A DNA stretch of 64,000 nucleotides from an uncultured Candidatus Saccharibacteria bacterium (GTDB lineage Bacteria; Patescibacteriota; Minisyncoccia; Phycocordibacterales; UBA12088): positions 64,894 through 128,893 of the forward strand of contig CAYPKR010000002.1 of the NCBI GenBank assembly GCA_964411375.1, written 5' to 3'. The notes under the pieces were generated by a model. The model was not told where the DNA came from. It was given only the letters and a program-made list of their open reading frames with translations, and made no database searches. Shown here piece after piece: positions 1 through 31,617 of this stretch. Made by a program: the position numbers and the translations under genes. Every line of letters starts with the position of its first letter. The stretch's first letter is position 1.

Positions 1-13
1 CGTTGGTGCAAAT

Positions 14-496
14 GTGGGCTCGGTATACGTTCTAGATGCAGTCGCAAGCGCATTCGGAATTGGGTTCGTCGCCCTTCTTGAATTGTATACTCCATCGGTT
101 TTTGACTTCCCGATAACGTATATCATTGGATTTTTGGTATTCAGTTATGGAGTTTGGGGATATTCGCTTTCCAAAAACTTGAAGGCAAATATATATCTTC
201 TGGAGACAACTGGGGCGAGTACTAATATTTTCTCAAAAGCCTTCTATGATCTTGCTCGTTCCACGACATCAAACAGCAATCTACGAAACCTAGCTGGAAG
301 TGCTGGGTATATTGCAACTGAATTAGCGAAAGAAATACCATACTATGTACTGGCCTTTGGCGCTGCGGCAGCAAGTCAGGACGTGACTGCTTCAATGTCT
401 ATACTTTTCCTTGCAGGGGCAAATATCGGCGCTGCCGTCTACGAATATGCTTTAGCTTTCAGTACTATGTTCATCCTTCCCTTTATAAAAAAGTAA
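14..496 (+). CDS. hypothetical membrane protein; the frame stays open upstream of base 14, so it may be 5-prime partial
   Basis: ORF track 160 aa. Hydrophobic segments are present. No motif recognised. Confidence 0.45.
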   Translation: MGSVYVLDAVASAFGIGFVALLELYTPSVFDFPITYIIGFLVFSYGVWGYSLSKNLKANIYLLETTGASTNIFSKAFYDLARSTTSNSNLRNLAGSAGYIATELAKEIPYYVLAFGAAAASQDVTASMSILFLAGANIGAAVYEYALAFSTMFILPFIKK

Positions 497-501
497 ACGC
501 T

Positions 502-1281
502 ATGGACAATTCACTAAGCTATCATTCTTACGAAGATCACTGGATTCCACGAGACTATTTGCATCATTATTACAGTCAGATTAATGCTGACGAACAACAT
601 ACGATTCAATTTTTTGTTGATGCGATGCAGAAGGCAGGTAAATCAGGAGAAGTATTATTTTTTGGATGCGGCCCTACGCTCCACCATGTTTTTCTATCGG
701 CTCCCAAGGCGAGCGCGATAGACCTTGCTGATTACCTCCAAAATAATATTGATGAGCTCAAAAAGTGGATTGATAAGGACCCTGAGTCACACAATTGGAC
801 GCAATTTGTAAGCTACACCCTTGAATGCGAGGGAAACACAAATCCTTCGGCAGAAGATGTTGCCGAGCGTGAACGATTGATGCGAGGATTAGTAAGAAAT
901 CTTATTCCAAATGCTGACGTGAAGAAGGGGGCGCCTCTTGGAGAAGCGGGGGTGGGTCGATACCAAACTATCATTAGTGCGTATTGCGCCGATGCAGTAA
1001 CCGCAGATAAAGAAGAGTGGAGAGAATATATGCGAAACATCGCGAGCATGCTTGCTCCCGGAGGTCATTTCATCGTATCAGCGCTAGGCAATACCGATTC
1101 CTATATCGTAAACGGGAAGGTGTTCCCGTGCGCGAATATTACCAAGAAAGACATGGAGGAAGCATTGGGGCAGGATTGCGAACGTGATAGCATAGAAGTA
1201 GTTGAAGTTAGCGAACTCGGTGAACAAAAAGAATTGGGTTACACAGGCATTATTTTAGCCCACGGCATTAAAAAATCATGA
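502..1281 (+). CDS. SAM-dependent methyltransferase of the NNMT/PNMT/TEMT family
   Basis: Collinear match to the nicotinamide N-methyltransferase family. PRDYLHHYY aligns with FNPRDYLEKYY, and FFGCGPT..DELKKWIDKDPESHNW..ECEGN aligns with IDIGSGPT..QELEKWLKKEPEAFDW..CDLEGN. The LAPGGHFIV block is also present. Confidence 0.65.
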   Translation: MDNSLSYHSYEDHWIPRDYLHHYYSQINADEQHTIQFFVDAMQKAGKSGEVLFFGCGPTLHHVFLSAPKASAIDLADYLQNNIDELKKWIDKDPESHNWTQFVSYTLECEGNTNPSAEDVAERERLMRGLVRNLIPNADVKKGAPLGEAGVGRYQTIISAYCADAVTADKEEWREYMRNIASMLAPGGHFIVSALGNTDSYIVNGKVFPCANITKKDMEEALGQDCERDSIEVVEVSELGEQKELGYTGIILAHGIKKS

Positions 1282-2147
1282 AAGAAAGTTATTTTAAATA
1301 TACGGGGAGTTCTCTCTTTATCGCAGGTTTTTTTGGTTGCCTGGTGATGTTATGGATTGCTGGATCGCTTGCAACTTCTCCGATCGATATTCCTGAAACT
1401 GCTCCACCATTTTTGGGTGGCGTTACCGGAGAACCATACAATTATGTATTTGCGTTTCTCTACGGACTGATCCCGCTCTACGGCGGAATAGTCGGCATGA
1501 TGAAAGCGCGAAAATGGGGTATGTTTGCAAGCAAGATGGGAAAGGCGATATTCTTTCTTTCACTCGGTCTTATCACGTGGGGATTCGGCGAACTGATCTG
1601 GTCTTACTACAATTTCTTCCTCAATCAAGAAATTCCATACCCTTCAATTGCTGATGCGAGCTTTATTTTAAGTTGGCCACTCTGGGGAGTGGGAACCTTC
1701 TACCTCTCCCATGCAACAGGAGTAAAGTATGGGCTTCGAAAGATATCGGGAAGACTTCAGATTATTATTGTTCCGATTATTGCGCTTGCCGCATCGTATT
1801 ATCTTTTGGTCACTGTTGCTCGAGGCGGTTCGTTTCCGATTGAAGGGCAATTCATGAAAATATTCTTTGATCTTGCCTACCCAATTTTTGATGTAATGAT
1901 TCTTACCATGGCACTTTTGGTATACGGTCTTTCATTTGAGTGCCTGGGGGGGAGATTTAAATGGCCAGTCCTAATATTACTTTCAGGATTCGTGGTGAAT
2001 TACCTTGCTGACTTTGGATTTTCCTTCACTACAACTACTGGGGCTTTCTATAACGGGAATTGGGTCGATTTATTGTTTGCGGGCGCGATGTTCTTGATTA
2101 GCTTCGCAACTAATAGCTTTGACGTACCTGATACTTCAGTTTCATAA
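1278..2147 (+). CDS. polytopic membrane protein of unknown function (about 7 TM)
   Basis: 289 aa with multiple long hydrophobic helices. The start overlaps the upstream stop by 4 nt, which suggests an operon. Confidence 0.55.
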   Translation: MKESYFKYTGSSLFIAGFFGCLVMLWIAGSLATSPIDIPETAPPFLGGVTGEPYNYVFAFLYGLIPLYGGIVGMMKARKWGMFASKMGKAIFFLSLGLITWGFGELIWSYYNFFLNQEIPYPSIADASFILSWPLWGVGTFYLSHATGVKYGLRKISGRLQIIIVPIIALAASYYLLVTVARGGSFPIEGQFMKIFFDLAYPIFDVMILTMALLVYGLSFECLGGRFKWPVLILLSGFVVNYLADFGFSFTTTTGAFYNGNWVDLLFAGAMFLISFATNSFDVPDTSVS

Positions 2148-2156
2148 AATTAAGGT

Positions 2157-2441
2157 ATGAGTGTTTTTGATAAAATCGCAAGTCAAATCATCAAGGAACA
2201 AGGCCTCATTATCGGTCCTATTGCATGGAGTGCTGCGCGAAAAGTTCCCGGTCTTAAAGTAATTGACGAAAAATCTGCTTCAGTAAAACTCGATGAAACT
2301 AAGAGTCCCGAAGTGGTTGACTCCCTTGTTCACGAGTACGAATCCCTTTTTGGACGTGCTGCACGGGAAGTGTGTAAGGATGCGGCGGCACCACTTCTTG
2401 CAGAACTTACACTCGATGCAGTCCCGGCAAGTCTTCGATGA
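2157..2441 (+). CDS. hypothetical small protein
   Basis: 94 aa ORF sitting tightly between the membrane protein and the histidine kinase. No motif recognised. Confidence 0.4.
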   Translation: MSVFDKIASQIIKEQGLIIGPIAWSAARKVPGLKVIDEKSASVKLDETKSPEVVDSLVHEYESLFGRAAREVCKDAAAPLLAELTLDAVPASLR

Positions 2442-2484
2442 TCGAGGAGGATGTTACTCGTTTGTCTAATCATTTGTATTTGAC

Positions 2485-3864
2485 ATGGCTGACCAACCAG
2501 AAAAAGCGGGATCCACAACCAAGGAGCTTCAAGATGTAACCGAAAGTTTGTACAAACAGAATCTTGAACTTGCCGTTAAAAATAAGACACTCTCACTCCT
2601 TGAAAAGTTATATCAGATCAGTATTCTGACACTCGAATCCCATGAGATTGCAGCTCGCATAAGCGAAACTATCCAAGAAGATTTGAATTTCGAGCATGTT
2701 GGGATATTGCGGTTCCATCACTCCACGAATACCCTTGCAACCCTGGCAACTGCAGATTCCATACATTTCGGAGAGGTTCTTGGCGGAGCGGAATATCACT
2801 GCACAAGTGAAACACCTAACTTGCACAGCAATATCTTCTTTAAACAAGTCATCGAAGAAAAGCGGATGGGGTATAGTGAACATCTCCTTGATGTATGGGG
2901 TGATAATTGTCCAAAGGAACTATTGGCAGAGCTCGAAGAAAAAGGACGTGTACATTCGGTTATCGCCTTTCCACTTTTTATTGAAAAAAATGTTATTGGT
3001 ATCTGTCTCTTAGTACTCAATCGAGACTATACCGAGCTTCCCAATTATGAAAAGGAAGCAATTGCAAGCGTCATCAACGTAATCGCTGTTGCACTCGACA
3101 AGGCAACTTTGTATGAAAAATTAAAAGAGAGTAACGCAGAACTGGAAGTGAGTAATGATCGTCTGCGAAATCTTGATCAATTGAAAACAGAATTTGTCTC
3201 AATCGCATCGCATCAACTCCGCGCACCAGTGACGGCAATAAAAGGGTACGCGTCCCTGATCCTGGAAGGTTCTTTTGGCACAGTCCCTGCGTCTCTTGAC
3301 GAAGCAGTATCGCGTATTTTTTCCTCGAGTAAATATATGGCGTCTTCGATTGACGATTTCTTGAATGTTTCTCGAATCGAACAAGGGAAAATGAAGTATG
3401 ATTTGAAATCATTCGATGTTACTTCCATGGTGAAACAAACGTACACCGAATTTTTACCCATTGCCGAAAAGAAAAAATTGCAATTGATCTTTACTGAGAC
3501 AGGAGTGATTGACGCACATGCGGATGAAGGAAAAGCGAAGCAGGTCATCACAAATATTCTCGATAATTCTCTGAAGTACACACTGAAGGGAAGTGTCATC
3601 ATCTCAATGAGTAAAGATGAATCTCGTAAAAAAGTAGTAATTGTAATTCAAGACACTGGTGTTGGTATCTCAAAAGAAGATCGAGAAAAGTTGTTTACCA
3701 AATTTGCACGAGCTTCGAATGCAAACACCGCAAATGTGCAGGGAACAGGCTTGGGTCTTTTTGTCGCCCGTGAAATGGCACGAGCTATGGGCGGTGATAT
3801 TCGTCTGGAGTCGGAAGGGGTGGGAAAAGGGACAAAATCGACGATTGAGCTTCCGGTAGCCTAA
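2485..3864 (+). CDS. cytoplasmic GAF-domain sensor histidine kinase
   Basis: HisKA H-box SHQLRAPVTAIKGYASLI. HATPase G-boxes DTGVGIS and GTGLGLFVAREMARAMGG. No TM segment is evident. Confidence 0.85.
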   Translation: MADQPEKAGSTTKELQDVTESLYKQNLELAVKNKTLSLLEKLYQISILTLESHEIAARISETIQEDLNFEHVGILRFHHSTNTLATLATADSIHFGEVLGGAEYHCTSETPNLHSNIFFKQVIEEKRMGYSEHLLDVWGDNCPKELLAELEEKGRVHSVIAFPLFIEKNVIGICLLVLNRDYTELPNYEKEAIASVINVIAVALDKATLYEKLKESNAELEVSNDRLRNLDQLKTEFVSIASHQLRAPVTAIKGYASLILEGSFGTVPASLDEAVSRIFSSSKYMASSIDDFLNVSRIEQGKMKYDLKSFDVTSMVKQTYTEFLPIAEKKKLQLIFTETGVIDAHADEGKAKQVITNILDNSLKYTLKGSVIISMSKDESRKKVVIVIQDTGVGISKEDREKLFTKFARASNANTANVQGTGLGLFVAREMARAMGGDIRLESEGVGKGTKSTIELPVA

Positions 3865-3916
3865 TCCCGTCTTTTTACTGTCCAAAATGGTCATTTTTTG
3901 CTAAAATCGCCCTATT

Positions 3917-4876
3917 ATGGCTGATGCTTCTACAAAACGTCTCCTTACGGGTTTACAGCCCTCTGGGGCGCTTCATATTGGCAACTACTTTGGGGCTTTA
4001 AAGCCATTTGTTGAGCTCTCGAATAGCGGGGAATTCGACAAGATTTTCCTCATGGTTGTCGATTATCACGCCCTTACGTCACTCAAAGATCCTGCCACAC
4101 TTCGCCAAAATATAATCGACGTCGTCAAAGATTATGTCGCCGCAGGTGTCGATCTCGACAAAGTAATTTTATTCAAACAATCAGACGTATCTGAACATAC
4201 GGAACTTGCATGGATTTTTGAATGTTTGGTAACGGTTCCATTTTTGATGCAAGCGCATTCGTACAAAGACAAAGTTGCGAAAGGACTTGAAGCGAATGCC
4301 GGTCTATTTAACTATCCGATGCTCATGGCGGCAGATATTCTTCTGTACGACATTTCCACGGTCCCCGTTGGGCAAGATCAACGCCAGCATATTGAATATG
4401 CGCGCGAAGCCGCATCGAAGTTCAATATTGCCTTTGGACAAACATTCGTTGAACCTGAAGGAAAAATCTTGGACGGAGTTGCGATTGTTCCGGGAGTAGA
4501 CGGTCAAAAGATGTCGAAGAGTTACAAAAACACGATTCCTTTGTTTGGTTCGCGTGAGGAAATTTCAAAAGCAGTAATGTCCATCGTTACTGATTCGTCC
4601 GGCGGACGCCCTGAAAACGTGTACGCTATTCATAAGCTTTTCAGGTCTGAAGCTGAACTTAAAAGCTTGTATGATTCGAATAAGGGAAATTACAAAGCTT
4701 TGAAGGAGGCATTGATCAATGACATTGATGCATATATTGGAGATATGCGCACAAAACGAGAATCGGTGACCGATGAGCAAGTACAAGAGATTCTTTCCCG
4801 TGGCGCAAAGGCAGCAAAAGAAATTGCTGGAGCAAAGATGGCGGACGTGCGAAAGAAAGTTGGCGTAACAATATAA
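3917..4876 (+). CDS. trpS: tryptophanyl-tRNA synthetase
   Basis: Class I HIGN motif (SGALHIGNYFGAL) and KMSKS. 319 aa is typical of TrpRS. Confidence 0.85.
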   Translation: MADASTKRLLTGLQPSGALHIGNYFGALKPFVELSNSGEFDKIFLMVVDYHALTSLKDPATLRQNIIDVVKDYVAAGVDLDKVILFKQSDVSEHTELAWIFECLVTVPFLMQAHSYKDKVAKGLEANAGLFNYPMLMAADILLYDISTVPVGQDQRQHIEYAREAASKFNIAFGQTFVEPEGKILDGVAIVPGVDGQKMSKSYKNTIPLFGSREEISKAVMSIVTDSSGGRPENVYAIHKLFRSEAELKSLYDSNKGNYKALKEALINDIDAYIGDMRTKRESVTDEQVQEILSRGAKAAKEIAGAKMADVRKKVGVTI

Positions 4877-4878
4877 CC

Positions 4879-6213
4879 ATGGAGCGAATACTTATTGGAG
4901 AATTGCATGACCACATTGGGGAAGAAGTCACGATCAGTGGCTGGGTAGATGTCGCACGTGATCAAGGAAAAATGGCATTCTTCGATTTTCGTGACCGAAG
5001 CGGAAAAGTGCAAGGTGTGGTGTTCGGAAAACCAGACGTGCTTGAAGTTGCGAAACGACTCAAATCAGAATGGGTGGTTTCAGTGACTGGAAAAGTAAAT
5101 GAACGTCCGGAAAAAATGGTTAACAAAGATCAACCGAACGGAAATATTGAACTTGAAATCACTGGAATTGAGATACTCGCTGAAGCTGAAGTACTTCCGT
5201 TTGAACTTGGCACGGAGCTCAACCTCGACACGCTCCTTGATTATCGTCCGCTCACCCTTCGAAGCGAACGAGAACGTGCCATCTTCAAAGTGCAACATAC
5301 TATCATTCAAGCGTATCGAGATTTTCTTGTTGCGGAAGGATTTACTGAATTTCAAGCACCAAAACTCGTAGGCGATGATGCGGAAGGCGGCGGCAACGTA
5401 TTTAAGCTTGATTATTTCAACGGTAAATACGCGTTCCTTGCGACGAGCCCACAGCTCTACAAAGAAATTATGGTTGGAGTGTTTGAACGTGTTTTTTCAA
5501 TAGGGAATGTATTCCGTGCAGAGAAACATGCGACCACGCGCCATATCAACGAATATACTTCAATTGATATCGAATGCGGATTCATCAAGGATCACACCGA
5601 TCTCATGCGTCTCGAGACAAAGTTGATGCGATATATCCTTGCTCGCCTCCATGAACAGTGCGAAACCGAATTTGAAATTGTTGGCGCAGAGTTTCCACTT
5701 ATACCAGAGGGTGACATCTTCCCATACATGAAACTTCGAGAAGCGCAGGCGCTTATTTCAAAAGAAACCGGTGTCGATTGCACGAACGAACCAGATCTCG
5801 AACCTGAACATGAACGTTGGCTCTGTACCTATGCGAAAGAAAAATTGGGAAGTGATTTCATTTTTATAACCCATTATCCGGTATCAAAACGCCCATTTTA
5901 CACAATGGAAGATTCTAATGATCCTGGATTTACCAAAAGCTTCGACTTGTTATTTCGAGGAATCGAAATCACGACTGGCGGACAGCGAGTGAATCAATAC
6001 AGCATGATGATCGAAAAGCTTAAGGCGAAAGGACTTGATCCTGAAAATTTCTCGTTCTACTTGCAAGCATTTAAATTTGGTATGCCACCGCACGGGGGAT
6101 GGGGGATGGGTCTCGAGCGTCTCACTGAAAAATTCTTAAATATTGCAAACGTCAAAGAAGCAACACTTTTCCCGCGTGATATTAATCGCATTGATAATTT
6201 GCTGTCCAAATAG
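4879..6213 (+). CDS. aspS: aspartyl-tRNA synthetase, archaeal/eukaryal type, probably non-discriminating
   Basis: Class II motif 2 FRAEKHATTRHINEYTSIDIE and motif 3 GGWGMGLERL. The SPQLYKE signature is characteristic of AspRS rather than AsnRS. 444 aa. Confidence 0.8.
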   Translation: MERILIGELHDHIGEEVTISGWVDVARDQGKMAFFDFRDRSGKVQGVVFGKPDVLEVAKRLKSEWVVSVTGKVNERPEKMVNKDQPNGNIELEITGIEILAEAEVLPFELGTELNLDTLLDYRPLTLRSERERAIFKVQHTIIQAYRDFLVAEGFTEFQAPKLVGDDAEGGGNVFKLDYFNGKYAFLATSPQLYKEIMVGVFERVFSIGNVFRAEKHATTRHINEYTSIDIECGFIKDHTDLMRLETKLMRYILARLHEQCETEFEIVGAEFPLIPEGDIFPYMKLREAQALISKETGVDCTNEPDLEPEHERWLCTYAKEKLGSDFIFITHYPVSKRPFYTMEDSNDPGFTKSFDLLFRGIEITTGGQRVNQYSMMIEKLKAKGLDPENFSFYLQAFKFGMPPHGGWGMGLERLTEKFLNIANVKEATLFPRDINRIDNLLSK

Positions 6214-6215
6214 AA

Positions 6216-6953
6216 ATGCCGCCTACTGGCTATCAACTCAAACTGCCATCATTTGAAGGTCCTCTCGACCTTCTCTTGTCATTTATTGAGCGTCGAAAGC
6301 TTTCTATAAGCGACGTTTCTCTCGCCTCTGTTTCCGACGATTTTATTTCCTACATGAATGAGCACAAGGAATTTCCAATTCCTGAGGCGGCTCATTTCGT
6401 GTTGGTTGCGTCCACTCTACTTCTCATAAAATCAAAATCGCTTCTTCCAACACTCGACCTCACCAGCGAAGAAGAGGCGTCGATCGAGGATCTTGCAAAA
6501 CGTTTATCGCTCTATAAATATTTCCGCACCGTTGGTGATACCGTTCGTGCAGTTTTTGGACGCACAGTACTTTTTTCAAAAGATTCAAATCGAAAAGTGT
6601 TGGATCCAGTGTTTTCTCCGCATGAAAGCATAACAAAAGAATCACTTCGTCTTGCGGCCGGAAGAGTACTTGATTCAGTTCCTGAACCCGAAACACTCCC
6701 GAAAGCAATGGTTAAAAAGGTGATGAGCCTCGAGGAGATGATCGACACACTCGCTACGCGCATTCAATCGAGCATGAAACTTTCATTTAATGAATTTTCA
6801 GGAATGGGCAAAAAAGAAAAAGTGGAAGTGATTGTTGGATTCCTTGCGATGCTTGAACTCGTGAAGCAGGGAGTAATTACGGTCGAGCAGAGCGGACGTT
6901 TTTCTGATATTGTGATTCAAACTGACGCAGTCGGTGTGCCAAGATACGGCTAA
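6216..6953 (+). CDS. scpA: segregation and condensation protein A (kleisin)
   Basis: N-terminal FEGPLDLLLSFIERRKL motif typical of ScpA. Confidence 0.85.
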   Translation: MPPTGYQLKLPSFEGPLDLLLSFIERRKLSISDVSLASVSDDFISYMNEHKEFPIPEAAHFVLVASTLLLIKSKSLLPTLDLTSEEEASIEDLAKRLSLYKYFRTVGDTVRAVFGRTVLFSKDSNRKVLDPVFSPHESITKESLRLAAGRVLDSVPEPETLPKAMVKKVMSLEEMIDTLATRIQSSMKLSFNEFSGMGKKEKVEVIVGFLAMLELVKQGVITVEQSGRFSDIVIQTDAVGVPRYG

Positions 6954-6957
6954 TACT

Positions 6958-7497
6958 ATGGATCTTCCTCAAAAAATAGAAGCATTTTTGTTTTACCGCG
7001 GAGAACCCGTGAAGATTGGTACGCTTTCCAAAACACTCAGCGAAGAACAGAGTGCGGTAGTGGAAGCCCTCGAACAACTCCGAACTTCTCTCACCGGTAG
7101 AGGAATTACGCTGGTCGAAGCAAATGGGGAAGTAGAACTTATGACTTCACCAGAAGCAGCTTCACTGATTGAAAATATTCGAAAAGAAGAACTCTCAAAA
7201 GATTTGGGAAAAGCCGGACTTGAAGTGTTATCGATCATAATGTACAAAGGACCAATCTCTCGCTCTCAAATTGATTACATTCGTGGAGTGAATTCATCAT
7301 TTATTCTTCGGAATATGTTGGTGCGGGGACTCATTGAGCGAGTTTCAAATCCGAATGATGAGCGGAGTTTCCTGTACCGAGGATCGATGGATCTTTTGGC
7401 ACATATGGGGGTCTCTCGAATTGAAGATCTACCGGATTATGCTGCGGTCAGAAGTGAATTAGAAGCAATCGAAGCAAAGATACATGCTGACGAATAA
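6958..7497 (+). CDS. scpB: segregation and condensation protein B
   Basis: IEAFLFYRGEPV motif. The start is set at the internal Met just after the scpA stop; the ORF track begins 8 codons earlier. Confidence 0.8.
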   Translation: MDLPQKIEAFLFYRGEPVKIGTLSKTLSEEQSAVVEALEQLRTSLTGRGITLVEANGEVELMTSPEAASLIENIRKEELSKDLGKAGLEVLSIIMYKGPISRSQIDYIRGVNSSFILRNMLVRGLIERVSNPNDERSFLYRGSMDLLAHMGVSRIEDLPDYAAVRSELEAIEAKIHADE

Positions 7498-8488
7498 TCC
7501 TGAATCTGAACCTCGCTTTCTTTCAGAAGGAGCGACTCGCGTGTTATTTCATCCTGCGAGTATTTTTGCATTTCTTGGAATTGCGCTTCTCATTACAGTC
7601 GGTAGTTTATGGTATGGAGAAAAAAATAGTGAAGCAAAAACAACGTCAATCGTACAAGCAAAGACTCCACCACCATTCACTCTCGCTATGCCGCTTTTTG
7701 CAAAAGCCGCATATGTATATGATCCCGAAACAGGCGACGTACTCTTCGCAAGAAGTGCAGAACTGCAACTTCCGCTCGCATCTCTTACCAAACTAATGAC
7801 GGCGCTTGTTGCATCAAACAAACTCGCCGACAATGATACGGTGGTCATAAATGATGCCGCGCTCCGTGAAGATGGGGCAAGCGGACTTGAAGGCGGGGAA
7901 CGCTGGTCATTTAAAAAATTGCTCGGCTTTACATTGGTCTCATCCTCAAACGATGGAGCGCACGCCCTGGCGAGTGCTGCGGGCGCAACACTGCTTCTGA
8001 CTCCGCAAGCACAAGCTTCTGACAAAGAGAGTGTCGACACGTTTGTTGCCAACATGAATGCCGAAGCAAAAAGACTCGGAATGTCGCAAACATATTTCCT
8101 CAACCCAACCGGACTTGATGAATCGGTTGGACAAAGTGGCGCGTATGGTTCCGCTGATGATATTGCGCACCTCATGGCGTATATTCTGAAGGCGAAACCA
8201 GAACTTCTTTCTGCAACTCCAGCTACAAAATTAGTTACGACCGACCAGAACGGGGAAGTGAAGACGGTAAAAAACACAAACACTGCGATTGGTGATTTTC
8301 CCGGCCTTATCGCCTCAAAAACAGGATATACGGATCTTGCCGGTGGAAACCTGGCGATTGCCTTCGACGCGGGATTGGCGCACCCAATCATTATTGTCGT
8401 TCTCGGTTCTACCGAAGAAGGACGCTTTATTGACGCCAAAACCCTACTCGACGCGACACTGGTTCAAATGGGCAAAAGAGAGGAATAA
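7484..8488 (+). CDS. D-alanyl-D-alanine carboxypeptidase (PBP5-like, S11 family)
   Basis: SxxK (SLTK), SxN (SSND) and KTG (KTGYT) motifs. N-terminal TM anchor. Confidence 0.8.
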   Translation: MLTNNPESEPRFLSEGATRVLFHPASIFAFLGIALLITVGSLWYGEKNSEAKTTSIVQAKTPPPFTLAMPLFAKAAYVYDPETGDVLFARSAELQLPLASLTKLMTALVASNKLADNDTVVINDAALREDGASGLEGGERWSFKKLLGFTLVSSSNDGAHALASAAGATLLLTPQAQASDKESVDTFVANMNAEAKRLGMSQTYFLNPTGLDESVGQSGAYGSADDIAHLMAYILKAKPELLSATPATKLVTTDQNGEVKTVKNTNTAIGDFPGLIASKTGYTDLAGGNLAIAFDAGLAHPIIIVVLGSTEEGRFIDAKTLLDATLVQMGKREE

Positions 8489-8548
8489 AGCTTTCCAGTT
8501 GGTTCGGAGCCCTACTCCGGCTATACTTTGAAGGTATAATCAATTCCA

Positions 8549-9631
8549 ATGCCCATTGATCTCATTAAAGTAATCACTCCGCTTGCCGCGGCGTTTTGGA
8601 TTGGGATAGGAATAACTCCTATTCTTACGCACTATTTATACAAATATAAAGTTTGGAAAAAGAAAGGAGGTAAAGAAGCGCTCGACGGCAATCGTGCGGA
8701 AGAATTTGGAAAATTACGGCCCGATACATTGGAAACAAAGACGCCTCGGATGGGCGGCATCGTGATTTGGACGAGTGTCTTCATAACCGTTGTCGGTATG
8801 TGGGCACTCGGAGAATTTTTTCCAGATTCAATTGCCAACAAACTCGATTTTTTGAGTCGCGATCAAACATGGATTCCTCTCCTCTCCTTAATTGCTGGAG
8901 CGATTGTTGGTTTTGTAAATGATTATATTGATGTCACCGCAGAAACAGGGGAGCGGGGAATACCGCTTCGGTATCGACTTATCATTGTCGGTCTGCTCTC
9001 ACTTTTTATCGGCTGGTGGTTTTATGAAAAATTAGATGTAATCGGCATCAGCATTCCAGGTGGAGGAATCCTCGTCTTGGGATGGTGTATCATTCCATTT
9101 TTCATGCTCGTGACACTTGCACTCTATGCGAGTGGCGTTATTGATGGAATTGATGGTCTCTCTGGCGGCGTCTTTAGCTCCATTTTTACTGCGTACGCAA
9201 TCATTGCCTTTGAACAACATCAGGTGAATCTCGCTGCATTTTGTGCCGCAATGGTCGGCGCGATTCTGGCATTTCTCTGGTTTAATATTCCGCCCGCCAG
9301 ATTCTGGATGACCGAAACCGGAACTATGGGCATTACACTTACGATTGCGGTAATCGCCTTTATGACCGATTCACTTGGAGAAGGAATCGGTGTCAGTGTT
9401 CTTCCAATTATTGGCGGTCTTCTGGTTATCACCGTGCTTTCAAATATCATTCAGATTGTTTCAAAAAAAGTATTCGGAAGAAAAGTATTTCGGATCGCAC
9501 CCCTTCACCATCATTTTGAGGCAGTCGGCTGGCCCGGATACAAAGTAACGATGCGATACTGGATTTTGGGAATCATGCTCGCGTTTATTGGCGTTATTGT
9601 CGCGCTTGTCGGCACGACACCGAGCGTATAA
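8549..9631 (+). CDS. mraY: phospho-N-acetylmuramoyl-pentapeptide transferase
   Basis: Polytopic protein with GIDGLSGG and the C-terminal PLHHHFE motif. Confidence 0.9.
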   Translation: MPIDLIKVITPLAAAFWIGIGITPILTHYLYKYKVWKKKGGKEALDGNRAEEFGKLRPDTLETKTPRMGGIVIWTSVFITVVGMWALGEFFPDSIANKLDFLSRDQTWIPLLSLIAGAIVGFVNDYIDVTAETGERGIPLRYRLIIVGLLSLFIGWWFYEKLDVIGISIPGGGILVLGWCIIPFFMLVTLALYASGVIDGIDGLSGGVFSSIFTAYAIIAFEQHQVNLAAFCAAMVGAILAFLWFNIPPARFWMTETGTMGITLTIAVIAFMTDSLGEGIGVSVLPIIGGLLVITVLSNIIQIVSKKVFGRKVFRIAPLHHHFEAVGWPGYKVTMRYWILGIMLAFIGVIVALVGTTPSV

Positions 9632-9636
9632 CTTCC

Positions 9637-10731
9637 ATGGTGCGAAAAATGGACAGGGTTTTTCTCGGAGCGGCACTTGCCTTGGTCGTTTCTGGTTTTT
9701 TTATTTTTCTTTCCGCCTCTCTTGGACTTCTCGCACGCGAAGGAGCGACATTTTCCAGTGTCGCTTTCAGCCAAATACTTCTCGGACTTCTAGGCGGTAG
9801 TGTCGCCCTCGTCGTACTTTCAAGATTTCCATACAAACACTACCGACACTATGCGCTGTATTTCGCCATTTTTGCGGCATTCATGTGTCTCTTAGTATTC
9901 GTGCCGCACCTTGGATTTAGCTATAACGGCGCCCGTAGATGGATACATCTCGGGATCTCATTCCAGCCCGCAGAACTCCTGAAAATTGGTGTGGTCATGT
10001 ATTTTGCCGCATATCTCGGTAGTCATCGCGACAAGCTCAAATACATGAAATATGGGTTCTTACCACTTCTCGCGGTTCTTGCAGTTGTTGCTGTCTTACT
10101 TCTATCTCAGCCAGATACGGGAACCTTTTTAGTTCTCGTCTTTGCAATTGTTGGAATGTATCTTGCCGCTGGAGCGCCGTGGAGAGACTTACTCCTTCTC
10201 ATGCTTCTTGCAGCAATCGGACTGGGAGTTATTGCGATGTGGCGACCGTACGTTATGGATCGATTCACCACATTTTTAAACCCAGAAAGTGACCCTTTAG
10301 GATCAGGCTATCAAATACAGCAGTCGCTAATCGCGGTTGGTTCGGGACGATTAGTTGGGCGCGGGTTTGGACAAAGTATCCAGAAATTTAACTTTTTACC
10401 GGAACCAACAGGGGACTCTATCTTTTCTGTTTTTGCTGAAGAATTTGGTCTGATTGGCGGAGCTCTCTTGATTGCACTGTACGCCATTTTCTCGCTTCGA
10501 GGGCTCCGCATAGCCGCCAGGTCACCCGACCTCTTCGGTGGACTCTTGGTTGTGGGGATTGTTATACTGATAGTGTCGCAGTCGTTCGTAAATATCGGCG
10601 CAATGGTTGGCATTTTGCCTCTGACTGGTGTGCCACTTGTGTTTGTGAGTCACGGAGGAACAGCGCTTTTCTTTGCGCTTGCTGAAGTGGGGATCATACT
10701 GAACGTCTCGACGTACTTACGCAAAGCGTAA
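9637..10731 (+). CDS. ftsW: SEDS-family peptidoglycan glycosyltransferase FtsW/RodA
   Basis: SEDS motifs. Lies between mraY and murG. Confidence 0.88.
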   Translation: MVRKMDRVFLGAALALVVSGFFIFLSASLGLLAREGATFSSVAFSQILLGLLGGSVALVVLSRFPYKHYRHYALYFAIFAAFMCLLVFVPHLGFSYNGARRWIHLGISFQPAELLKIGVVMYFAAYLGSHRDKLKYMKYGFLPLLAVLAVVAVLLLSQPDTGTFLVLVFAIVGMYLAAGAPWRDLLLLMLLAAIGLGVIAMWRPYVMDRFTTFLNPESDPLGSGYQIQQSLIAVGSGRLVGRGFGQSIQKFNFLPEPTGDSIFSVFAEEFGLIGGALLIALYAIFSLRGLRIAARSPDLFGGLLVVGIVILIVSQSFVNIGAMVGILPLTGVPLVFVSHGGTALFFALAEVGIILNVSTYLRKA

Positions 10732-10749
10732 GAAAACCATACCAATCAT

Positions 10750-11889
10750 ATGAAAATTGTTTTTACGGGCGGCGGAACCGGCGGTCATTTCTATCCAATA
10801 ATCGCAATCGTCGACGCACTTTTCGATATCACCGATAAGCAAAATCTGCTTCCACCGGAGTTGTTTTATATCGGTCCCGAACCATTCGATGAGCGGGCGC
10901 TTTTTGAACACAACATTCAATTCATTCCAGCTCCTGCAGGAAGGATGCGAAATTATGCATCGATGCATAATTATTTCGACATGATCAAAATCGCGATCGG
11001 CACAATAAAAGCGATTGGCATTCTATTTAAAATTTTTCCTGATGTGGTATTTAGCAAGGGCGGCTACGCGAGCGTACCGACCGTGATGGCAGCACGCATT
11101 TTGAAAATTCCCGTCATTATCCATGACTCCGATGCAGTTCCCGGAAGAGCAAATCTCTGGGCAGCATCCTTTGCGCGACGAATCGGTATTTCATATCCGG
11201 ATGCCGTTTCATATTTTCCCGAAAAAATTCGCACGAAAATTGCCTATACCGGCAATCCGATCAGGAAAGGAATCGTGCAACCCGCAAATGAAGGAGTGTA
11301 CGAATTCCTTGAGCTTTCTCGTGATATCCCAACCATACTAGTACTCGGTGGCTCTCAAGGCGCACAACGCATCAACGACACGATTCTTGAAGCATTGCCG
11401 ATCTTACTTGAAAAATATCAGATCATTCATCAAACCGGCGAGAAAAATTTTGCCGAAGTTAAGGGAACTGCCTCGGTTGCACTCGAAAATAATCCGTACA
11501 AAAATCGATACAAGCTCTTTCCATATCTCCAAGATCTTGCGATTCGTATGTGCGTCGGTGCTGCATCGATTATTGTTTCGCGTGCCGGCTCCGGTTCCAT
11601 CTTCGAAATAGCAGTCTGGCAGAAACCGGCAATTCTCGTGCCTATTCCAGAGGACGTATCAAGAGACCAGCGTCATAACGCATTTGCCTATATGCGTGCC
11701 GGAGGATGTGTCGTGGTTGAAGAAAAAAATCTCTCACCGCATGTCTTATCCGCCGAAATCGATCGGCTGATGGCGCATCCTGAAATTCGAGAACAAATGA
11801 AGGTCGCCGCGCAGAAATTCAAACGACTCGATGCAAGCGAAATACTGGCGAATGAAATTATCCGAATTGCGCTTAAACACGAAGCTTGA
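10750..11889 (+). CDS. murG: UDP-GlcNAc:undecaprenyl-PP-MurNAc-pentapeptide GlcNAc transferase
   Basis: FTGGGTGGHFYP and GGSQGA motifs. Confidence 0.9.
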   Translation: MKIVFTGGGTGGHFYPIIAIVDALFDITDKQNLLPPELFYIGPEPFDERALFEHNIQFIPAPAGRMRNYASMHNYFDMIKIAIGTIKAIGILFKIFPDVVFSKGGYASVPTVMAARILKIPVIIHDSDAVPGRANLWAASFARRIGISYPDAVSYFPEKIRTKIAYTGNPIRKGIVQPANEGVYEFLELSRDIPTILVLGGSQGAQRINDTILEALPILLEKYQIIHQTGEKNFAEVKGTASVALENNPYKNRYKLFPYLQDLAIRMCVGAASIIVSRAGSGSIFEIAVWQKPAILVPIPEDVSRDQRHNAFAYMRAGGCVVVEEKNLSPHVLSAEIDRLMAHPEIREQMKVAAQKFKRLDASEILANEIIRIALKHEA

Positions 11890-13226
11890 GTATGAATACT
11901 GATGTTGTCACACGCTTCCCGCCATCGCCCACCGGGTACCTGCAGGTCGGAAATATCCGAACTGCAATTTTTAACTATCTCTTCGCGAAGAAGCATGGTG
12001 GGAAATTTGTACTTCGTCTTGAAGATACCGATAAGGAACGCTCTAAAGAAGAGTATGCGGAAAGTATTATCGCTGATATGGAGTGGCTTGGATTTTCCTA
12101 CGATGCATTTGCAAAACAAAGTGACCGAGCAAATATTCACCGTGAGTATCTTGAAAAATTAATTGAGGAAGGGAAGGCGTATGTTTCGAAGGAAGATGCG
12201 GAAGAGGGGAAACGTGCTGAGGTAATTCGCTTCAAAAATCCAAACAGAGTCATCTCTTTTCTCGATGCGGTTCGTGGAGAAATCAGCATAGATACGACTG
12301 ATCTTGGTGATTTTGTCATTGCCAAAAGTCTCGATGAGCCACTCTATCATCTTGGCGTTATTGTTGATGATTTTTTGATGGGAATTACTCACGTCATTCG
12401 CGGAGAAGATCATATCTCAAATACACCAAGGCAGATTTTGCTGATCGAAGCAATCGGTGCACCAATTCCAAAATACGCACATTTGCCACTTATTCTTTCT
12501 CCTGATCGCACCAAACTTTCAAAGCGAAACGGATCGGTTTCCCTCAAAAATCTACGCGAAGAAGGATACTTGAAAGAAGCGGTGATCAATTTCCTTGCAC
12601 TCCTTGGTTGGAATCCAGGAACCGAGCAAGAACTCTTTACACTTGAAGAACTCATCGAGGCATTTGATCTTTCACACATTCAAAAAGGCGGCGGTATTTT
12701 TAATATCGATCGACTCAATTGGTTTAACCGCGAGTACATTAAACAACTCGACGACGGAAAGTTTATGGAATATACCTCAGAAAAGCTTTCAAACTATTCT
12801 GATATTGAAGAAATATTCAAAAGCAGTGTAGCTGCACGAACGGACTTGAAACAACGCATTACAACCCTCGGAGAAATTACTCGCCTCGCAGATCAAGGAG
12901 AATTTACGTATTACACTGATACACCCGCACTTGCACCTGAAAAATTACTATGGAAAGGGGAGACTGTTGAAGCGACAATCGTTCGTTTGAAAAAAATTAA
13001 TTCTCTCCTTGAATCGATTGATTCTGAGTGGACAGCGGAGATAATTAAGTCACTGATACTTCCCTATGCAGAAACGGAAGGGAAAGGGGCAGTTCTGTGG
13101 CCAACGCGGTATGCATTTTCTGGAAAAGACCGCTCGCCCGATCCCTTTACCCTTGCAGAAGCCGTTGGAAGAAATGAGTCATTACTACGTCTACAGAAAG
13201 CGATCGAAGTCCTAGAAGTAAACTGA
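11886..13226 (+). CDS. gltX: glutamyl-tRNA synthetase
   Basis: RFPPSPTGYLQVGNIRTA (HIGH region), LRLEDTD and KLSKRNG. Confidence 0.9.
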   Translation: MSMNTDVVTRFPPSPTGYLQVGNIRTAIFNYLFAKKHGGKFVLRLEDTDKERSKEEYAESIIADMEWLGFSYDAFAKQSDRANIHREYLEKLIEEGKAYVSKEDAEEGKRAEVIRFKNPNRVISFLDAVRGEISIDTTDLGDFVIAKSLDEPLYHLGVIVDDFLMGITHVIRGEDHISNTPRQILLIEAIGAPIPKYAHLPLILSPDRTKLSKRNGSVSLKNLREEGYLKEAVINFLALLGWNPGTEQELFTLEELIEAFDLSHIQKGGGIFNIDRLNWFNREYIKQLDDGKFMEYTSEKLSNYSDIEEIFKSSVAARTDLKQRITTLGEITRLADQGEFTYYTDTPALAPEKLLWKGETVEATIVRLKKINSLLESIDSEWTAEIIKSLILPYAETEGKGAVLWPTRYAFSGKDRSPDPFTLAEAVGRNESLLRLQKAIEVLEVN

Positions 13227-14557
13227 TGAATACACTGAAGCCTTCATATATCACACTGTTCATTCTATTTTGTGGCCTTGCCACTCCTATTTTTGCAATC
13301 GGAGACACCGTTGAGGATTTGCAAAACCGGATTCAGGACAGTAACTCGAAGATTCAGGCACTTGAGCAAGAAATTCAGCAATACCAAGGTCAGCTTCAAG
13401 AAGTCGGCAAACAGAAACAGACACTTCAACAGACACTTCAAACCATCGATATTTCACGTAAAAAAACAACGGCGGATATTAACGTTACCGTAAATCGAAT
13501 TAATTCGACCGAGGCTCAAATTCAAGAACTCTCGTACCAAATCGGCGACAAAGAAACCGAAATACTTCGTGACATCGCGGCAGTCCGAGAAGGACTTCGT
13601 GCAATGGACGCACAGGAATCAAATTCAGAAATTGAAACATTCTTATCACACGCAAGCCTCAGTGATTACTGGGATACGCTTCTCGACATCAACCAGTTTG
13701 AAAGCGCGCTTCGCGGAAATATTTCAGACCTTACGACGGTAAAATCGCAACTCCAAGACGCAAAGAAAAGTACTGAAGATAAAAAGCAAACGTTGAGTTC
13801 GCTTCAAAAACAGCTTACCAATCAAAAGGCAGTCCTTGACGCTAATCGCGCGGAAGAAAATAAAGTTCTTACTGAAACCAAAAACAAAGAATCAAACTAT
13901 CAAAAGATTCTTGCCGATAAAGTAAAGGCAAAGCAGCAATTTGAAGCAGAGTTGTTGGATTATGAATCAAAGCTCAAATTTGCACTCGATCCATCAAGTA
14001 TTCCACATACCGGAAATGGCGTTCTGTCGTGGCCATTTTCAAGTGATTATATGCAAAATTGTGCCAAATTAAGTAAGACGCTTGGAAATCCAAACTGCGT
14101 CACACAACCATTTGGAGACACAGCATTTGCAAAAGCTGGCGCATACAGCGGTAAAGGCCATAACGGTGTCGACTTTAGAGCACCAATCGGAACAGAGCTC
14201 CATTCAGTTCTTTCAGGAACAGTCCTCGGGACTGGTAATACCGACTCGATTAGAGGTTGTTATTCATACGGCAAATGGGTGCTTATCCGCCACGATAACG
14301 GCTTATCTTCGCTCTACGGGCATTTATCGGTTATTTCTGTATCTTCTGGCCAACATGTAGAAACGGGACAGGTAATCGGTTATAGCGGTCAAACCGGCTA
14401 TGCAACCGGTCCACACCTCCATTTGAGCCTATTTGCTTCGCAAGGTGTCCAAATCGTCAAATTGACGCAATTTACGGGCAAAGTAACGCCATGTGCAAAT
14501 GCCACAATGCCGGTAGCGCCTCTAAATGCATATCTCGATCCGCTCCAGTATCTATAG
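13226..14557 (+). CDS. M23 metallopeptidase with N-terminal coiled-coil (EnvC-like murein hydrolase activator)
   Basis: Signal/TM segment, a long Q/E/K-rich coiled-coil, and a C-terminal GHNGVDFRAPIGTEL plus GPHLHLSLF LytM domain. Confidence 0.85.
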   Translation: MNTLKPSYITLFILFCGLATPIFAIGDTVEDLQNRIQDSNSKIQALEQEIQQYQGQLQEVGKQKQTLQQTLQTIDISRKKTTADINVTVNRINSTEAQIQELSYQIGDKETEILRDIAAVREGLRAMDAQESNSEIETFLSHASLSDYWDTLLDINQFESALRGNISDLTTVKSQLQDAKKSTEDKKQTLSSLQKQLTNQKAVLDANRAEENKVLTETKNKESNYQKILADKVKAKQQFEAELLDYESKLKFALDPSSIPHTGNGVLSWPFSSDYMQNCAKLSKTLGNPNCVTQPFGDTAFAKAGAYSGKGHNGVDFRAPIGTELHSVLSGTVLGTGNTDSIRGCYSYGKWVLIRHDNGLSSLYGHLSVISVSSGQHVETGQVIGYSGQTGYATGPHLHLSLFASQGVQIVKLTQFTGKVTPCANATMPVAPLNAYLDPLQYL

Positions 14558-14629
14558 AAATAAATTTGATACAATAACCTTGTTCTCCTAATCTAATTTA
14601 TTTTTTAATAATCTAATTACATAGTATCT

Positions 14630-14854
14630 ATGCCATACAAAAGCATTCATATGGCGACGTTCATTCTTCTCGCAGTTGGCGGTTTAAACTGGCTAGCAGT
14701 CGGCCTCGGATATAACCTAGTTGAAATGATTTTAGGAAAAGAGTCCGTATTATCGCACTTCGTATATATCTTGGTTGGACTATCAGCTATTTATGAAATC
14801 GGAACCCATACATGGAATTGTCGAACATGCGTGGAAGAAAAGAAGAAAAAATAA
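14630..14854 (+). CDS. DUF378-family small membrane protein
   Basis: 74 aa with a GGLNWLAVG motif and two TM helices. Confidence 0.55.
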   Translation: MPYKSIHMATFILLAVGGLNWLAVGLGYNLVEMILGKESVLSHFVYILVGLSAIYEIGTHTWNCRTCVEEKKKK

Positions 14855-14874
14855 TCTCATTTATTTATATCGAT

Positions 14875-14906
14875 AAAAAACTTCCAGAAAATTCTGGAAG
14901 TTTTTT
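14875..14906. terminator. intrinsic terminator, bidirectional (A-run, hairpin, T-run)
   Basis: aaaaaa-cttccagaa..ttctggaag-tttttt immediately after the DUF378 gene. Confidence 0.7.
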
Positions 14907-15264
14907 ATTTGTAACGATCTAACAAGGAAATATATTCAAAAAAATATTTAAATAAAAAATAAAATATCGATGGGGTAGGAGATGGGCACTAAAAACTCTA
15001 TCTACATGTATATATTCACGGGCTTAAAGAGATACTCCCTCGGGTCTCCCTAGTATAATAGGTCGCAAAAGATATATTGTGCGACACTTAGCTTCTTTCT
15101 CCCCTAGAGCAGACGCTCTCAAAATTCCAGTAAAAAATATTTTGCGAGTATCACCTGCCCCGATAAAATCGGCTGAATTTTTTAGAAAATATTTTTTGTG
15201 TAATTTTATTAATATATTTTTTACTTCTCTTTTCGACATTTTAATTGTTCGAAAAAAATAAAAA

Positions 15265-15292
15265 ATGACCGGGGAAGTCTTCGGTCATTTTT
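15265..15292 (-). terminator. intrinsic terminator for the EVE-domain gene
   Basis: atgaccg..cggtcat hairpin with an A-run on the plus side (U-run on the minus transcript) and ttttt on the other side. Confidence 0.6.
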
Positions 15293-15324
15293 AGCCAATA
15301 TATGAGGATTGATACATCCCCTAT

Positions 15325-15789
15325 TTATAGGCGACTAGAGCTTTTTGTCATCTCAACAATTTTCTTAAAATGTTTTTCTCCAACTGGCTGAACTGATAAG
15401 CGCGAACCTGTTTGAGTCAAAACCATGTCATTAAACGTTCTGTCTAATTTAAGTGAAGCAAGTGTAATTGGATTTTTATATTCTTGAACGAATGCAATAT
15501 CGACTAAATCCCATATTGGTTTTTCTTTTGATGATTTTGGATCGAAATGTGAATCCTTAGGGTCGAATTGCGTTTTATCTGGATAAGACTCTTTCACTAC
15601 CTTTGCAACACCCACAATGGCTCGTTCATCACCGGAGTGATAGAAAAGAACCATGTCGCCTACTTTCATAGAACGCATATAATTTCGAGCTTGATAATTA
15701 CGGACTCCCGTCCATGCGGTTTTCTTCTCTTTCTTGAGATCTCGAATCGAATAGGCGCTCGGTTCGGTTTTCATGAGCCAATAGTTCAT
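15325..15789 (-). CDS. EVE (PUA-like) domain protein
   Basis: N-terminal NYWLMKTEP motif. 154 aa. Confidence 0.85.
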   Translation of the reverse strand: MNYWLMKTEPSAYSIRDLKKEKKTAWTGVRNYQARNYMRSMKVGDMVLFYHSGDERAIVGVAKVVKESYPDKTQFDPKDSHFDPKSSKEKPIWDLVDIAFVQEYKNPITLASLKLDRTFNDMVLTQTGSRLSVQPVGEKHFKKIVEMTKSSSRL

Positions 15790-15815
15790 AGGCTCAGTAT
15801 ACTATTTTAGTTTAC

Positions 15816-16466
15816 TTAGTTCTCAATCTTTCCGTACTCATACCAGTCAATATTTCTGGTGTAGAACATTACGAGACCAAGGAGAACGAAGACAATGAGC
15901 GAACCGAAAAGAAGCGCGTATTGCTCGAGCATCAAAATCACATAGAGATATCCGTATGCTGCAATCAAAAGTCCAAATAGTTTGCCAGTCTTTTCTCCAC
16001 TTCTAAGTACGGATTTGCTGTACATCGATATAAGCGCGAGTATCATCCCCGTTGCAACAATGTAGGCGTAATTGAATCCTATGTATTCGGCAAATGCCAG
16101 GAGGAGGAGATAAAAGAGTGCGAGTGCTGCGCCGACCAAAAAATATTGTATTGGATGTATCTTGATTTTTGACCCCACTTCAAAGAGAAAGAAGCAGCCG
16201 AATGTGAGCACAAAGAATAGTATCGCGTATTTGACGCTTCGGACGATTTTTCGGTAATCCGTTATTCCTCCTTCACTTCCCTCTTCGCTCTGAATTTGTT
16301 GTTGCGGAACTCCAGTCACTTCGGCAGGTACCGATTTTTGCTTAGCTTCTTCAAAAGCCGACTGACGTTCCTCTACGAGATCCAAGACCAAAAAGCTGAG
16401 GATGAGACAGACAACGCCAACAATTCCAATAAGCGCTAGTTTAAGGGTGATGTAGTCTAATTTCAC
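15816..16466 (-). CDS. membrane protein of unknown function; start uncertain
   Basis: The ORF track runs to 16637, but its first 57 codons read through the 16498-16540 terminator palindrome. A GTG at 16466 is the first start downstream of that hairpin. Multiple TM helices. Confidence 0.5.
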   Translation of the reverse strand: MKLDYITLKLALIGIVGVVCLILSFLVLDLVEERQSAFEEAKQKSVPAEVTGVPQQQIQSEEGSEGGITDYRKIVRSVKYAILFFVLTFGCFFLFEVGSKIKIHPIQYFLVGAALALFYLLLLAFAEYIGFNYAYIVATGMILALISMYSKSVLRSGEKTGKLFGLLIAAYGYLYVILMLEQYALLFGSLIVFVLLGLVMFYTRNIDWYEYGKIEN

Positions 16467-31581: not shown

Positions 31582-31617
31582 GGTCACAGTTTTTCACTGC
31601 GTTCAAATCTGTGACCC
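31582..31617. repeat. second GGGTCACAG/CTGTGACCC inverted repeat, overlapping the 3-prime end of tRNA-Glu
   Basis: gggtcacag-N19-ctgtgaccc. The right arm contains tRNA positions 67-72 plus the trailer. Confidence 0.55.

Follow-up and report, generated by a model that had tools for sequence, protein, structure and literature searches.

A bacterial NNMT/PNMT-family N-methyltransferase with a membrane partner and a decarboxylase neighbour in a Candidatus Saccharibacteria bacterium

The nicotinamide, phenylethanolamine and indolethylamine N-methyltransferases (NNMT, PNMT and INMT) are well studied in humans, and their bacterial relatives are almost uncharacterised. NCBIfam holds two bacterial models for the family (PF01234): one is GntF (NF041360), which forms pre-guanitoxin in the guanitoxin pathway by N,N-dimethylation of an aliphatic primary amine adjacent to a guanidine, and the other is the Streptomyces family SCO2525 (NF040568). 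For the latter, a part in morphogenesis as a putative methyltransferase has been described (PMC6344877). N-Methylation dependent on S-adenosylmethionine (SAM) is also carried out at the membrane by PmtA and OlsG, of an unrelated methyltransferase family, OlsG being described as related to phospholipid N-methyltransferases (PMC12971839). Here we analyse a PF01234 gene within a 64,000-nucleotide stretch (the window) of an uncultured Candidatus Saccharibacteria bacterium (contig CAYPKR010000002.1), a member of the candidate phyla radiation (CPR, Patescibacteria). The gene adjoins one for a membrane protein, here called mem183, to which most of its homologues are fused; related genes in several phyla lie beside amine-forming decarboxylases, and in CPR the enzyme may be tied to a signalling module that has so far carried no annotation.

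The initial annotation, made from the sequence alone, had proposed a small-molecule-type N-methyltransferase of the PF01234 family, and a profile hidden Markov model (HMM) search bears this out (142.7 bits, E=1.6e-41, cutoff 25), the match running over residues 4–224 and profile positions 6–229 of 261. By its own account, a higher-scoring HMM hit to one of the common bacterial class I methyltransferase families would have spoken against this assignment; the runner-up in Pfam is Methyltransf_23, at 22.7 bits and under its own cutoff, and since Methyltransf_12 and Methyltransf_25 are likewise sub-threshold the objection fails. Searching the PDB sequences with phmmer gave single collinear alignments to human INMT (2a14; E 1.5e-29, residues 9–222 against 10–225), to many NNMT entries (E ~1e-26 to 1e-24) and to PNMT (~1e-18), and the four motifs on which collinearity had been claimed occur in order: PRDYLHHYY (residues 16–24), FGCGPTLHH, DELKKW and APGGHF. 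The window protein thus has in common with human NNMT, INMT and PNMT (PDB 2iip, 2a14 and 1hnn) its Pfam family, its collinear alignment, its class I methyltransferase fold with a Tyr-rich N-terminal cap and identical SAM-binding residues. The evidence for the fold comes from an AlphaFold2 (AF2) model of a fused homologue, P0006, 54% identical to the window methyltransferase (mean predicted local distance difference test, pLDDT, 86.9; predicted TM-score, pTM, 0.64), in which a disordered linker at residues 186–194 separates a membrane half from a catalytic half, the latter superposing on NNMT chains with E ~1e-18 and target-normalised TM-scores of 0.81–0.88.

Residue by residue, the cofactor site is intact and the substrate site is not that of NNMT. 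Numbering follows what we take to be the human NNMT (hNNMT) reference sequence, which reproduces the literature residues Y20, D85, D142, D197, S201, Y204 and S213. The SAM-site residues Y20, Y24, Y25, G63, G65, T67, D85, Y86, N90, D142 and V143 are identical in the window protein, and C165 and D167 are likewise present; as judged from these residues, the enzyme should bind SAM and transfer a methyl group. Among the residues that bind nicotinamide or take part in catalysis, D197 is replaced by A, S201 by T and S213 by C. When two further CPR homologues (L087, L088) are aligned with the window protein the same positions read A, T or C, and C, and Y69-Q70 reads H-H; the alanine at the D197 site (A194) is invariant in a 16-sequence family alignment, and the H-H pair is invariant too. 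The aromatic pocket residues Y20, Y204 and Y242 are kept. Because these NNMT pocket residues are replaced, nicotinamide, or another pyridine, appears an unlikely substrate, so that of the 'pyridine or amine' suggested initially the second half fares better: an aliphatic amine fits better than a pyridine, given both the pocket and the decarboxylase genes described below.

The family had been called overwhelmingly eukaryotic, which is misleading. Among 5.8 billion clustered proteins we found 141 relatives of the methyltransferase, all matching PF01234, all of metagenome or bacterial-genome origin and 41–78% identical to it, and a scan seeded with motifs, in which each GTDB species was represented by one genome, returned at least 125, in Solirubrobacteraceae, Ilumatobacteraceae, Mesorhizobium, Hyphomicrobiales, Polyangia, Fibrobacterota and, within the Micromonosporaceae, Dactylosporangium, Actinoplanes, Micromonospora and Asanoa. 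Identity to human INMT is 30% and to NNMT 24%, whereas bacterial relatives reach 31–78%. In a neighbour-joining tree rooted on two human enzymes, the only eukaryotic sequences included, the bacterial sequences split into several well-supported clades, the window lineage has 100% bootstrap support and the clade joining it with the fused, mem183-linked proteins from outside CPR has 90%. The phylogeny called for initially therefore points to an old bacterial radiation, not to recent capture from a eukaryote, and on this sequence evidence the family is not essentially eukaryotic, the window gene belonging to a sizeable and uncharacterised bacterial branch. A bacterial PF01234 protein is unsurprising in itself. 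Some members occur in culturable Mesorhizobium, Actinoplanes, Dactylosporangium and Micromonospora, and their chemistry is therefore directly testable.

Among bacterial profiles the window protein matches GntF best, with 99.8 bits where the cutoff is 60, the host of GntF being a cyanobacterium and not a CPR bacterium. None of the gnt cluster genes lies near the window methyltransferase, whose neighbours are genes for DnaK, DnaJ, an AdoMet_dc protein, membrane proteins, a kinase and tRNA synthetases. The SCO2525 family is a bacterial PF01234 relative like the window protein, but the latter falls outside it (74.8 bits against a cutoff of 240). We note that a WWE3 homologue (L088 5193–6008) also passes the GntF model, an 'equivalog', with 108.9 bits, and that an Ilumatobacteraceae homologue (P0082) already bears the GntF name in NCBI. 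The 60-bit cutoff thus appears too permissive, judging by the divergent CPR and actinobacterial homologues that pass it, and the cyanotoxin name has probably been over-propagated to the whole bacterial branch; this is a problem of annotation, since a low cutoff puts the name of a cyanotoxin-biosynthesis enzyme on unrelated bacteria. Our literature search found nothing on this bacterial subfamily, SCO2525 being mentioned only in passing and GntF only in a review.

The most widespread partner of the methyltransferase is mem183. The window start cuts its gene, the full 183-aa version of which lies at 3726–4277 of a Logan contig with the same sequence (L001), and only 5 nt separate it from the methyltransferase (496 to 502). 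Most methyltransferase homologues are about 445 aa long as against about 260 aa here, their additional N-terminal ~185 aa align with mem183, and in 77 of the 80 genome loci searched with tblastn the mem183 domain either is fused to the methyltransferase or is encoded immediately before it. The window methyltransferase, adjoining mem183 and carrying the motifs GPTLHHVFL and SAYCAD, fits the two-part or fused subfamily as we define it. Such a partner is absent from the eukaryotic enzymes, and no domain of this type accompanies PmtA or OlsG. The partnership does not extend to every relative: many CPR methyltransferases, those of Polyangia and Fibrobacterota and a planctomycete-like one (L172) have no mem183.

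Mem183 is a dedicated membrane partner for which we found no solved structural relative. An AF2 model (pLDDT 95, pTM 0.85) has four long helices and one short amphipathic helix; searches of Pfam, NCBIfam and PDB sequence profiles returned no match, nor did Foldseek against the PDB (best E=1.2). K98, E126, K129, E130 and P132 are invariant, and D31, W71, N82, T89-G90, S92-T93, D102, Y122 and Y133-Y134 are among the near-invariant positions; the polar residues K98, E126, K129, E130 and Y133/134 cluster in two conserved polar motifs. When 1.84 billion representatives were searched exhaustively with a profile, only 396 clusters were found, comprising methyltransferase fusions, N-terminally extended copies and one fusion to an Aminotran_5 domain (P0310), while a word-indexed search for other fusion partners returned stand-alone copies only.

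Several single observations on mem183 may be recorded here. The one apparent orphan examined (P0170) has a frameshifted methyltransferase remnant downstream, and in L084 a frameshifted methyltransferase fragment (6565–6803, residues ~7–86) lies 3' of a stand-alone mem183 gene and looks like a decaying copy, with a reverse-transcriptase (RVT_1) gene ~2 kb upstream of the mem183 gene. The P0310 protein (L171 130–2208; 692 aa) joins mem183 to a class-V aminotransferase-fold enzyme (PF00266, 6e-43) dependent on pyridoxal phosphate (PLP), the methyltransferase being absent; as the only such case, on a contig of just 2.2 kb, it may be real or an artefact of assembly or run-on, and we draw nothing further from it. 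Some mem183 proteins form a sub-group (P0349, P0355, P0388, P0375, P0387 and L170 823–1917) with an N-terminal extension of ~170 aa, in which we found neither a hydrophobic stretch resembling a transmembrane (TM) segment nor a Pfam match.

The second recurrent association is with a decarboxylase, which had escaped the initial annotation because the gene lies just outside the window. Directly upstream of mem183 is a gene for a 134-aa protein of the AdoMet_dc family (PF02675; L001 3308–3712), ~470–70 nt upstream of window position 1, and the order AdoMet_dc, mem183, methyltransferase is the same in L002, L003 and L086; in L118, L133, L146 and L168, too, divergent CPR methyltransferases have an AdoMet_dc homologue beside them. 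In other CPR lineages the same slot is taken by a PLP-dependent gene of the ornithine/diaminopimelate decarboxylase (OrnDC/DAPDC) type (PF02784/PF00278; L087, L088, L090, L091, L093, L094, L096 and L098), often overlapping the start of the methyltransferase by 4–8 nt, and in L170 such a gene follows the N-terminally extended mem183 homologue at 10 nt on its 3' side. Outside CPR, an OrnDC-type gene is divergently adjacent in two of the three genome loci whose methyltransferase lacks mem183 (Polyangia L032, Fibrobacterota L036), and the planctomycete-like contig has one 5 kb upstream. The linkage to amine-forming decarboxylases is thus recurrent across phyla.

Since two unrelated decarboxylase folds alternate in one position, we suggest non-orthologous displacement for a single reaction, one that would turn a basic amino acid into an amine. 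The ES-H motif of the AdoMet_dc protein (VVIEESHISIHTFP) resembles the self-cleavage site of SpeH-type AdoMet decarboxylases; the score of this protein against the SAM-decarboxylase model is just below the cutoff (75.1 against 75.65 bits), and for the OrnDC-type enzyme LysA is the nearest model, although 178 bits are far short of its cutoff of 298. Crenarchaea have an arginine decarboxylase derived from AdoMet decarboxylase (PF02675), a pyruvoyl enzyme of the AdoMet_dc fold acting on a basic amino acid. It offers a precedent for the activity that the exchange of AdoMet_dc-type for OrnDC-type enzymes beside the methyltransferase suggests for the CPR AdoMet_dc protein.

Other genes around the decarboxylase and methyltransferase are more scattered. 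A 167-aa protein with six TM segments and no family match precedes the AdoMet_dc gene in L001, and many CPR loci have a membrane protein of 110–120 aa just upstream of the decarboxylase or methyltransferase (for example L090 4215–4577, L093 5668–6018, L118 1815–2147, L133 6279–6614, L143 1955–2296 and L146 6096–6440). These small proteins form two to three families unrelated by BLAST, and their identification as SMR or EamA exporters found no support in Pfam, which returned no match for them. As lineage-specific additions, a gene for an archaeal-type SAM synthetase (PF01941; L133 4009–5235) stands beside the methyltransferase in one locus, and an EamA transporter with an aldehyde dehydrogenase in another (L121 4799–7056).

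Downstream, the stop codon of the methyltransferase and the start of the gene for a 7-TM protein, tm289, overlap in a 4-nt ATGA (1278–1281), which bears out the translational coupling proposed initially; overlaps of 4–8 nt occur in L002, L087 and L088 as well. Together with the following genes for p94 and a histidine kinase, all on the same strand (Table 1), tm289 makes up the tm289–p94–HK module as defined here. More than 331 protein clusters at 45–78% identity to tm289 and 372 metagenome loci confirmed by scanning were found, and its organism-named relatives are all CPR/Patescibacteria (Roizmanbacteria, WWE3, Saccharimonadales, Parcubacteria). Neighbourhood counts were taken from 80 loci fetched: p94 lies directly downstream of tm289 in 64 of the 67 with enough sequence, a histidine-kinase core lies at most 3.5 kb downstream in 19 of 26, and in 12 of 50 the gene immediately before tm289, in the same orientation, encodes an NNMT-like methyltransferase, these 12 spanning divergent methyltransferase clades. 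Where at least 3 kb of upstream sequence was available, a decarboxylase was present in 8 of the 12 tm289 loci with a methyltransferase as against 6 of the 21 without. The initially proposed layout of methyltransferase, 7-TM protein, small protein and kinase thus recurs in CPR, yet tm289, p94 and the kinase occur without the methyltransferase in about three-quarters of loci (~76%) and are therefore a separate module. This module is CPR-specific, the methyltransferase is accessory to it, and none of its three genes was found beside the 80 methyltransferase homologues from outside CPR.

Table 1. Features of the methyltransferase locus in window coordinates
Feature	Position	Strand	Details and basis
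mem183, four-helix membrane protein, C-terminal 164 of 183 residues	2..496	+	Homology to fused N-termini
NNMT/PNMT/INMT-family SAM-dependent N-methyltransferase	502..1281	+	ATG start, 259 aa; PF01234, PDB alignments
tm289, 7-TM membrane protein	1278..2147	+	CPR-wide family; start overlaps methyltransferase stop
p94, 94-aa soluble protein	2157..2441	+	Companion of tm289
Cytoplasmic histidine kinase, weak GAF then HisKA, HATPase_c	2485..3864	+	Pfam

Considering that the tm289 domain forms the N-terminus of a PAS-HisKA-HATPase kinase in L088 (7163–9181), that in L087 (2875–5157) it stands at the C-terminal end of a STAND NTPase with an NB-ARC domain, and that five paralogues occur in tandem in L152 (800–6228), we infer that it is a sensor-type membrane domain rather than a transporter. 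It has the invariant motifs PYPSxAD, FFDxxYP and NYxxDFxFSYTTT and neither a Pfam family nor a match to PDB sequence profiles. The sole hint of MASE3 was a partial alignment of the L088 kinase to the NCBIfam model MASE3_PAS_HK; as neither tm289 nor the N-terminus of that kinase matches MASE3 in Pfam, we do not claim this identity. P94 has a conserved motif, IIGPxA...KVPGL, with no Pfam match and no PDB relative in profile searches. The kinase has HisKA (3e-14) and HATPase_c (2e-25) domains, and its GAF matches are sub-cutoff (GAF_2 21 bits, 4.2e-4, against 28.6; GAF 17.6 against 22.4), as they are weak in its homologues. Its only hydrophobic stretch, residues 159–177, falls inside the weak GAF span (51–205) and is therefore read as part of the domain, not as a TM helix. 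The flanking genes listed in the initial annotation are thus all present, although the GAF domain of the kinase is below threshold and the upstream membrane protein is no mere flank, being fused to the enzyme in most homologues.

Taking these associations together, we tentatively favour, as a possibility that falls a little short of even, a membrane-associated SAM-dependent N-methyltransferase acting on an aliphatic amine derived by decarboxylation. The predicted active methyltransferase would work at the membrane with mem183, with which it forms one polypeptide in most other bacteria, and the neighbouring decarboxylase would supply the amine, through a pyruvoyl enzyme of the AdoMet_dc family here and a PLP enzyme of the OrnDC/DAPDC type elsewhere; the most likely substrate would be a diamine, a polyamine or a guanidino-amine from a decarboxylated basic amino acid. 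In CPR the enzyme pair is translationally coupled to the downstream tm289/p94/kinase signalling module, and, as the pair lies upstream of the module and is coupled to it, the methylated amine is probably linked to what the module senses or controls. The substrate class, the role of mem183 and the link to the sensor module are what we infer from this arrangement. An operon with a decarboxylase and a sensor module distinguishes the window enzyme from the human enzymes. In the libraries and literature searched, the mem183 partnership, the decarboxylase link and the embedding in a widespread, unannotated CPR signalling module are all new. The module ranks with the better-conserved unannotated gene sets of CPR, and an N-methylated amine as a metabolite would be new biology for these bacteria, as would the ligand of the tm289 sensor.

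Several observations weigh against this proposal. The decarboxylase is not universal, since 78 of the 80 fused genes from outside CPR have none nearby, and clustering of open reading frames (ORFs) chosen by G+C content at third codon positions (GC3) found no conserved neighbour of the 80 non-CPR homologues, whose neighbours are lineage-specific only (acyl-CoA ligase in 12 loci, SDR in 11, MFS in 9). AdoMet_dc genes also occur near tm289 without the methyltransferase (L103, L124, L128, L142), so that the adjacency may be partly plain synteny, and in CPR, with its compact genomes and co-directional genes, adjacency counts for less as evidence than in other organisms. Moreover, the AdoMet_dc homologue might do no more than provide decarboxylated SAM for the usual synthesis of polyamines, and the OrnDC-type enzyme lies far under the LysA cutoff. 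Finally, a membrane partner fits a lipid substrate equally well.

The strongest alternative is an N-methyltransferase of lipid head groups, in which mem183 would bind an amino-lipid and present its amine to the cytoplasmic catalytic domain, candidate substrates being phosphatidylethanolamine, a lyso-lipid, an ornithine or lysine lipid or another membrane amine. PmtA and OlsG would then be functional analogues. Consistent with such a role, nearly all of the genome loci pair or fuse the enzyme with a conserved integral-membrane domain, the invariant polar residues of that domain gather in its two motifs, and the fused genes stand alone without pathway neighbours, as those of a lipid-modifying enzyme would. 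We nevertheless consider it unlikely, for it leaves the link to decarboxylases of soluble amino acids unexplained and many methyltransferases, in CPR, Polyangia, Fibrobacterota and the planctomycete-like L172, do without mem183. To our knowledge, the characterised PF01234 members all act on soluble small molecules. The known bacterial lipid N-methyltransferases PmtA and OlsG belong to a different family (PMC12971839).

Rather improbable is a signal synthase, in which decarboxylase and methyltransferase make a secreted N-methylated, possibly quaternary, amine that tm289, p94 and the kinase sense as in an autoinducer-type circuit, mem183 and the small membrane proteins helping to make or release it. 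A synthase next to a sensor, with translational coupling between them, is the layout that such a circuit would have; its fusions to PAS-HK and NB-ARC proteins mark tm289 as a domain of the sensor type, and the small membrane proteins without annotation that stand upstream in many loci could serve as exporters. Against this, the large majority of tm289 loci have no methyltransferase, no sensor lies near the fused enzymes of non-CPR bacteria, and the small membrane proteins match no recognised transporter family. If true, it would reveal previously unknown small-molecule signalling or cell–cell communication in the CPR/Patescibacteria, which depend on hosts, and at its core would be an enzyme family that is otherwise familiar from the metabolism of hormones and vitamins in animals.

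An N-methyltransferase of eukaryotic type for nicotinamide, other pyridines or aromatic amines (tryptamine, phenylethanolamine), possibly acquired from eukaryotes, is improbable. INMT, NNMT and PNMT are indeed the best solved-structure relatives and the tyrosines of the aromatic pocket are kept, but the window protein, L087 and L088 all carry other residues at the substrate positions of NNMT, identity to the human enzymes is only 24–30% as against 31–78% to hundreds of bacterial proteins, and the bacterial sequences stand in several well-supported clades of their own. A receptor-modifying enzyme acting on tm289 or p94, in the manner of CheR in sensor adaptation, is very improbable: translational coupling and frequent adjacency link the methyltransferase to tm289, but most family members occur without tm289, the decarboxylase link is left unexplained, and we know of no characterised PF01234 member that methylates a protein.

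In the remainder of the window, co-directional and tightly packed housekeeping genes follow the kinase (3917–13226). Pfam on the matching L001 contig identified TrpRS, AspRS, ScpA, ScpB, an S11 D-Ala-D-Ala carboxypeptidase and a Glycos_transf_4 protein (MraY-type), and inspection by eye alone suggested FtsW/RodA-like, MurG-like and GluRS-like products for three more ORFs. L002 and L086 keep this housekeeping order, which shows how much of the local gene order is plain synteny. Predicted promoters and terminators in window positions 1–5000 were not above shuffled expectation. The lowest G+C content, 0.386 as against ~0.46, is found at 14001–16000, where a gap without any ORF of at least 80 aa (~14557–15325) is located; Rfam found nothing in this stretch, and the sole RNA gene in the window is that for tRNA-Glu(CTC), at 31611–31683 on the minus strand.

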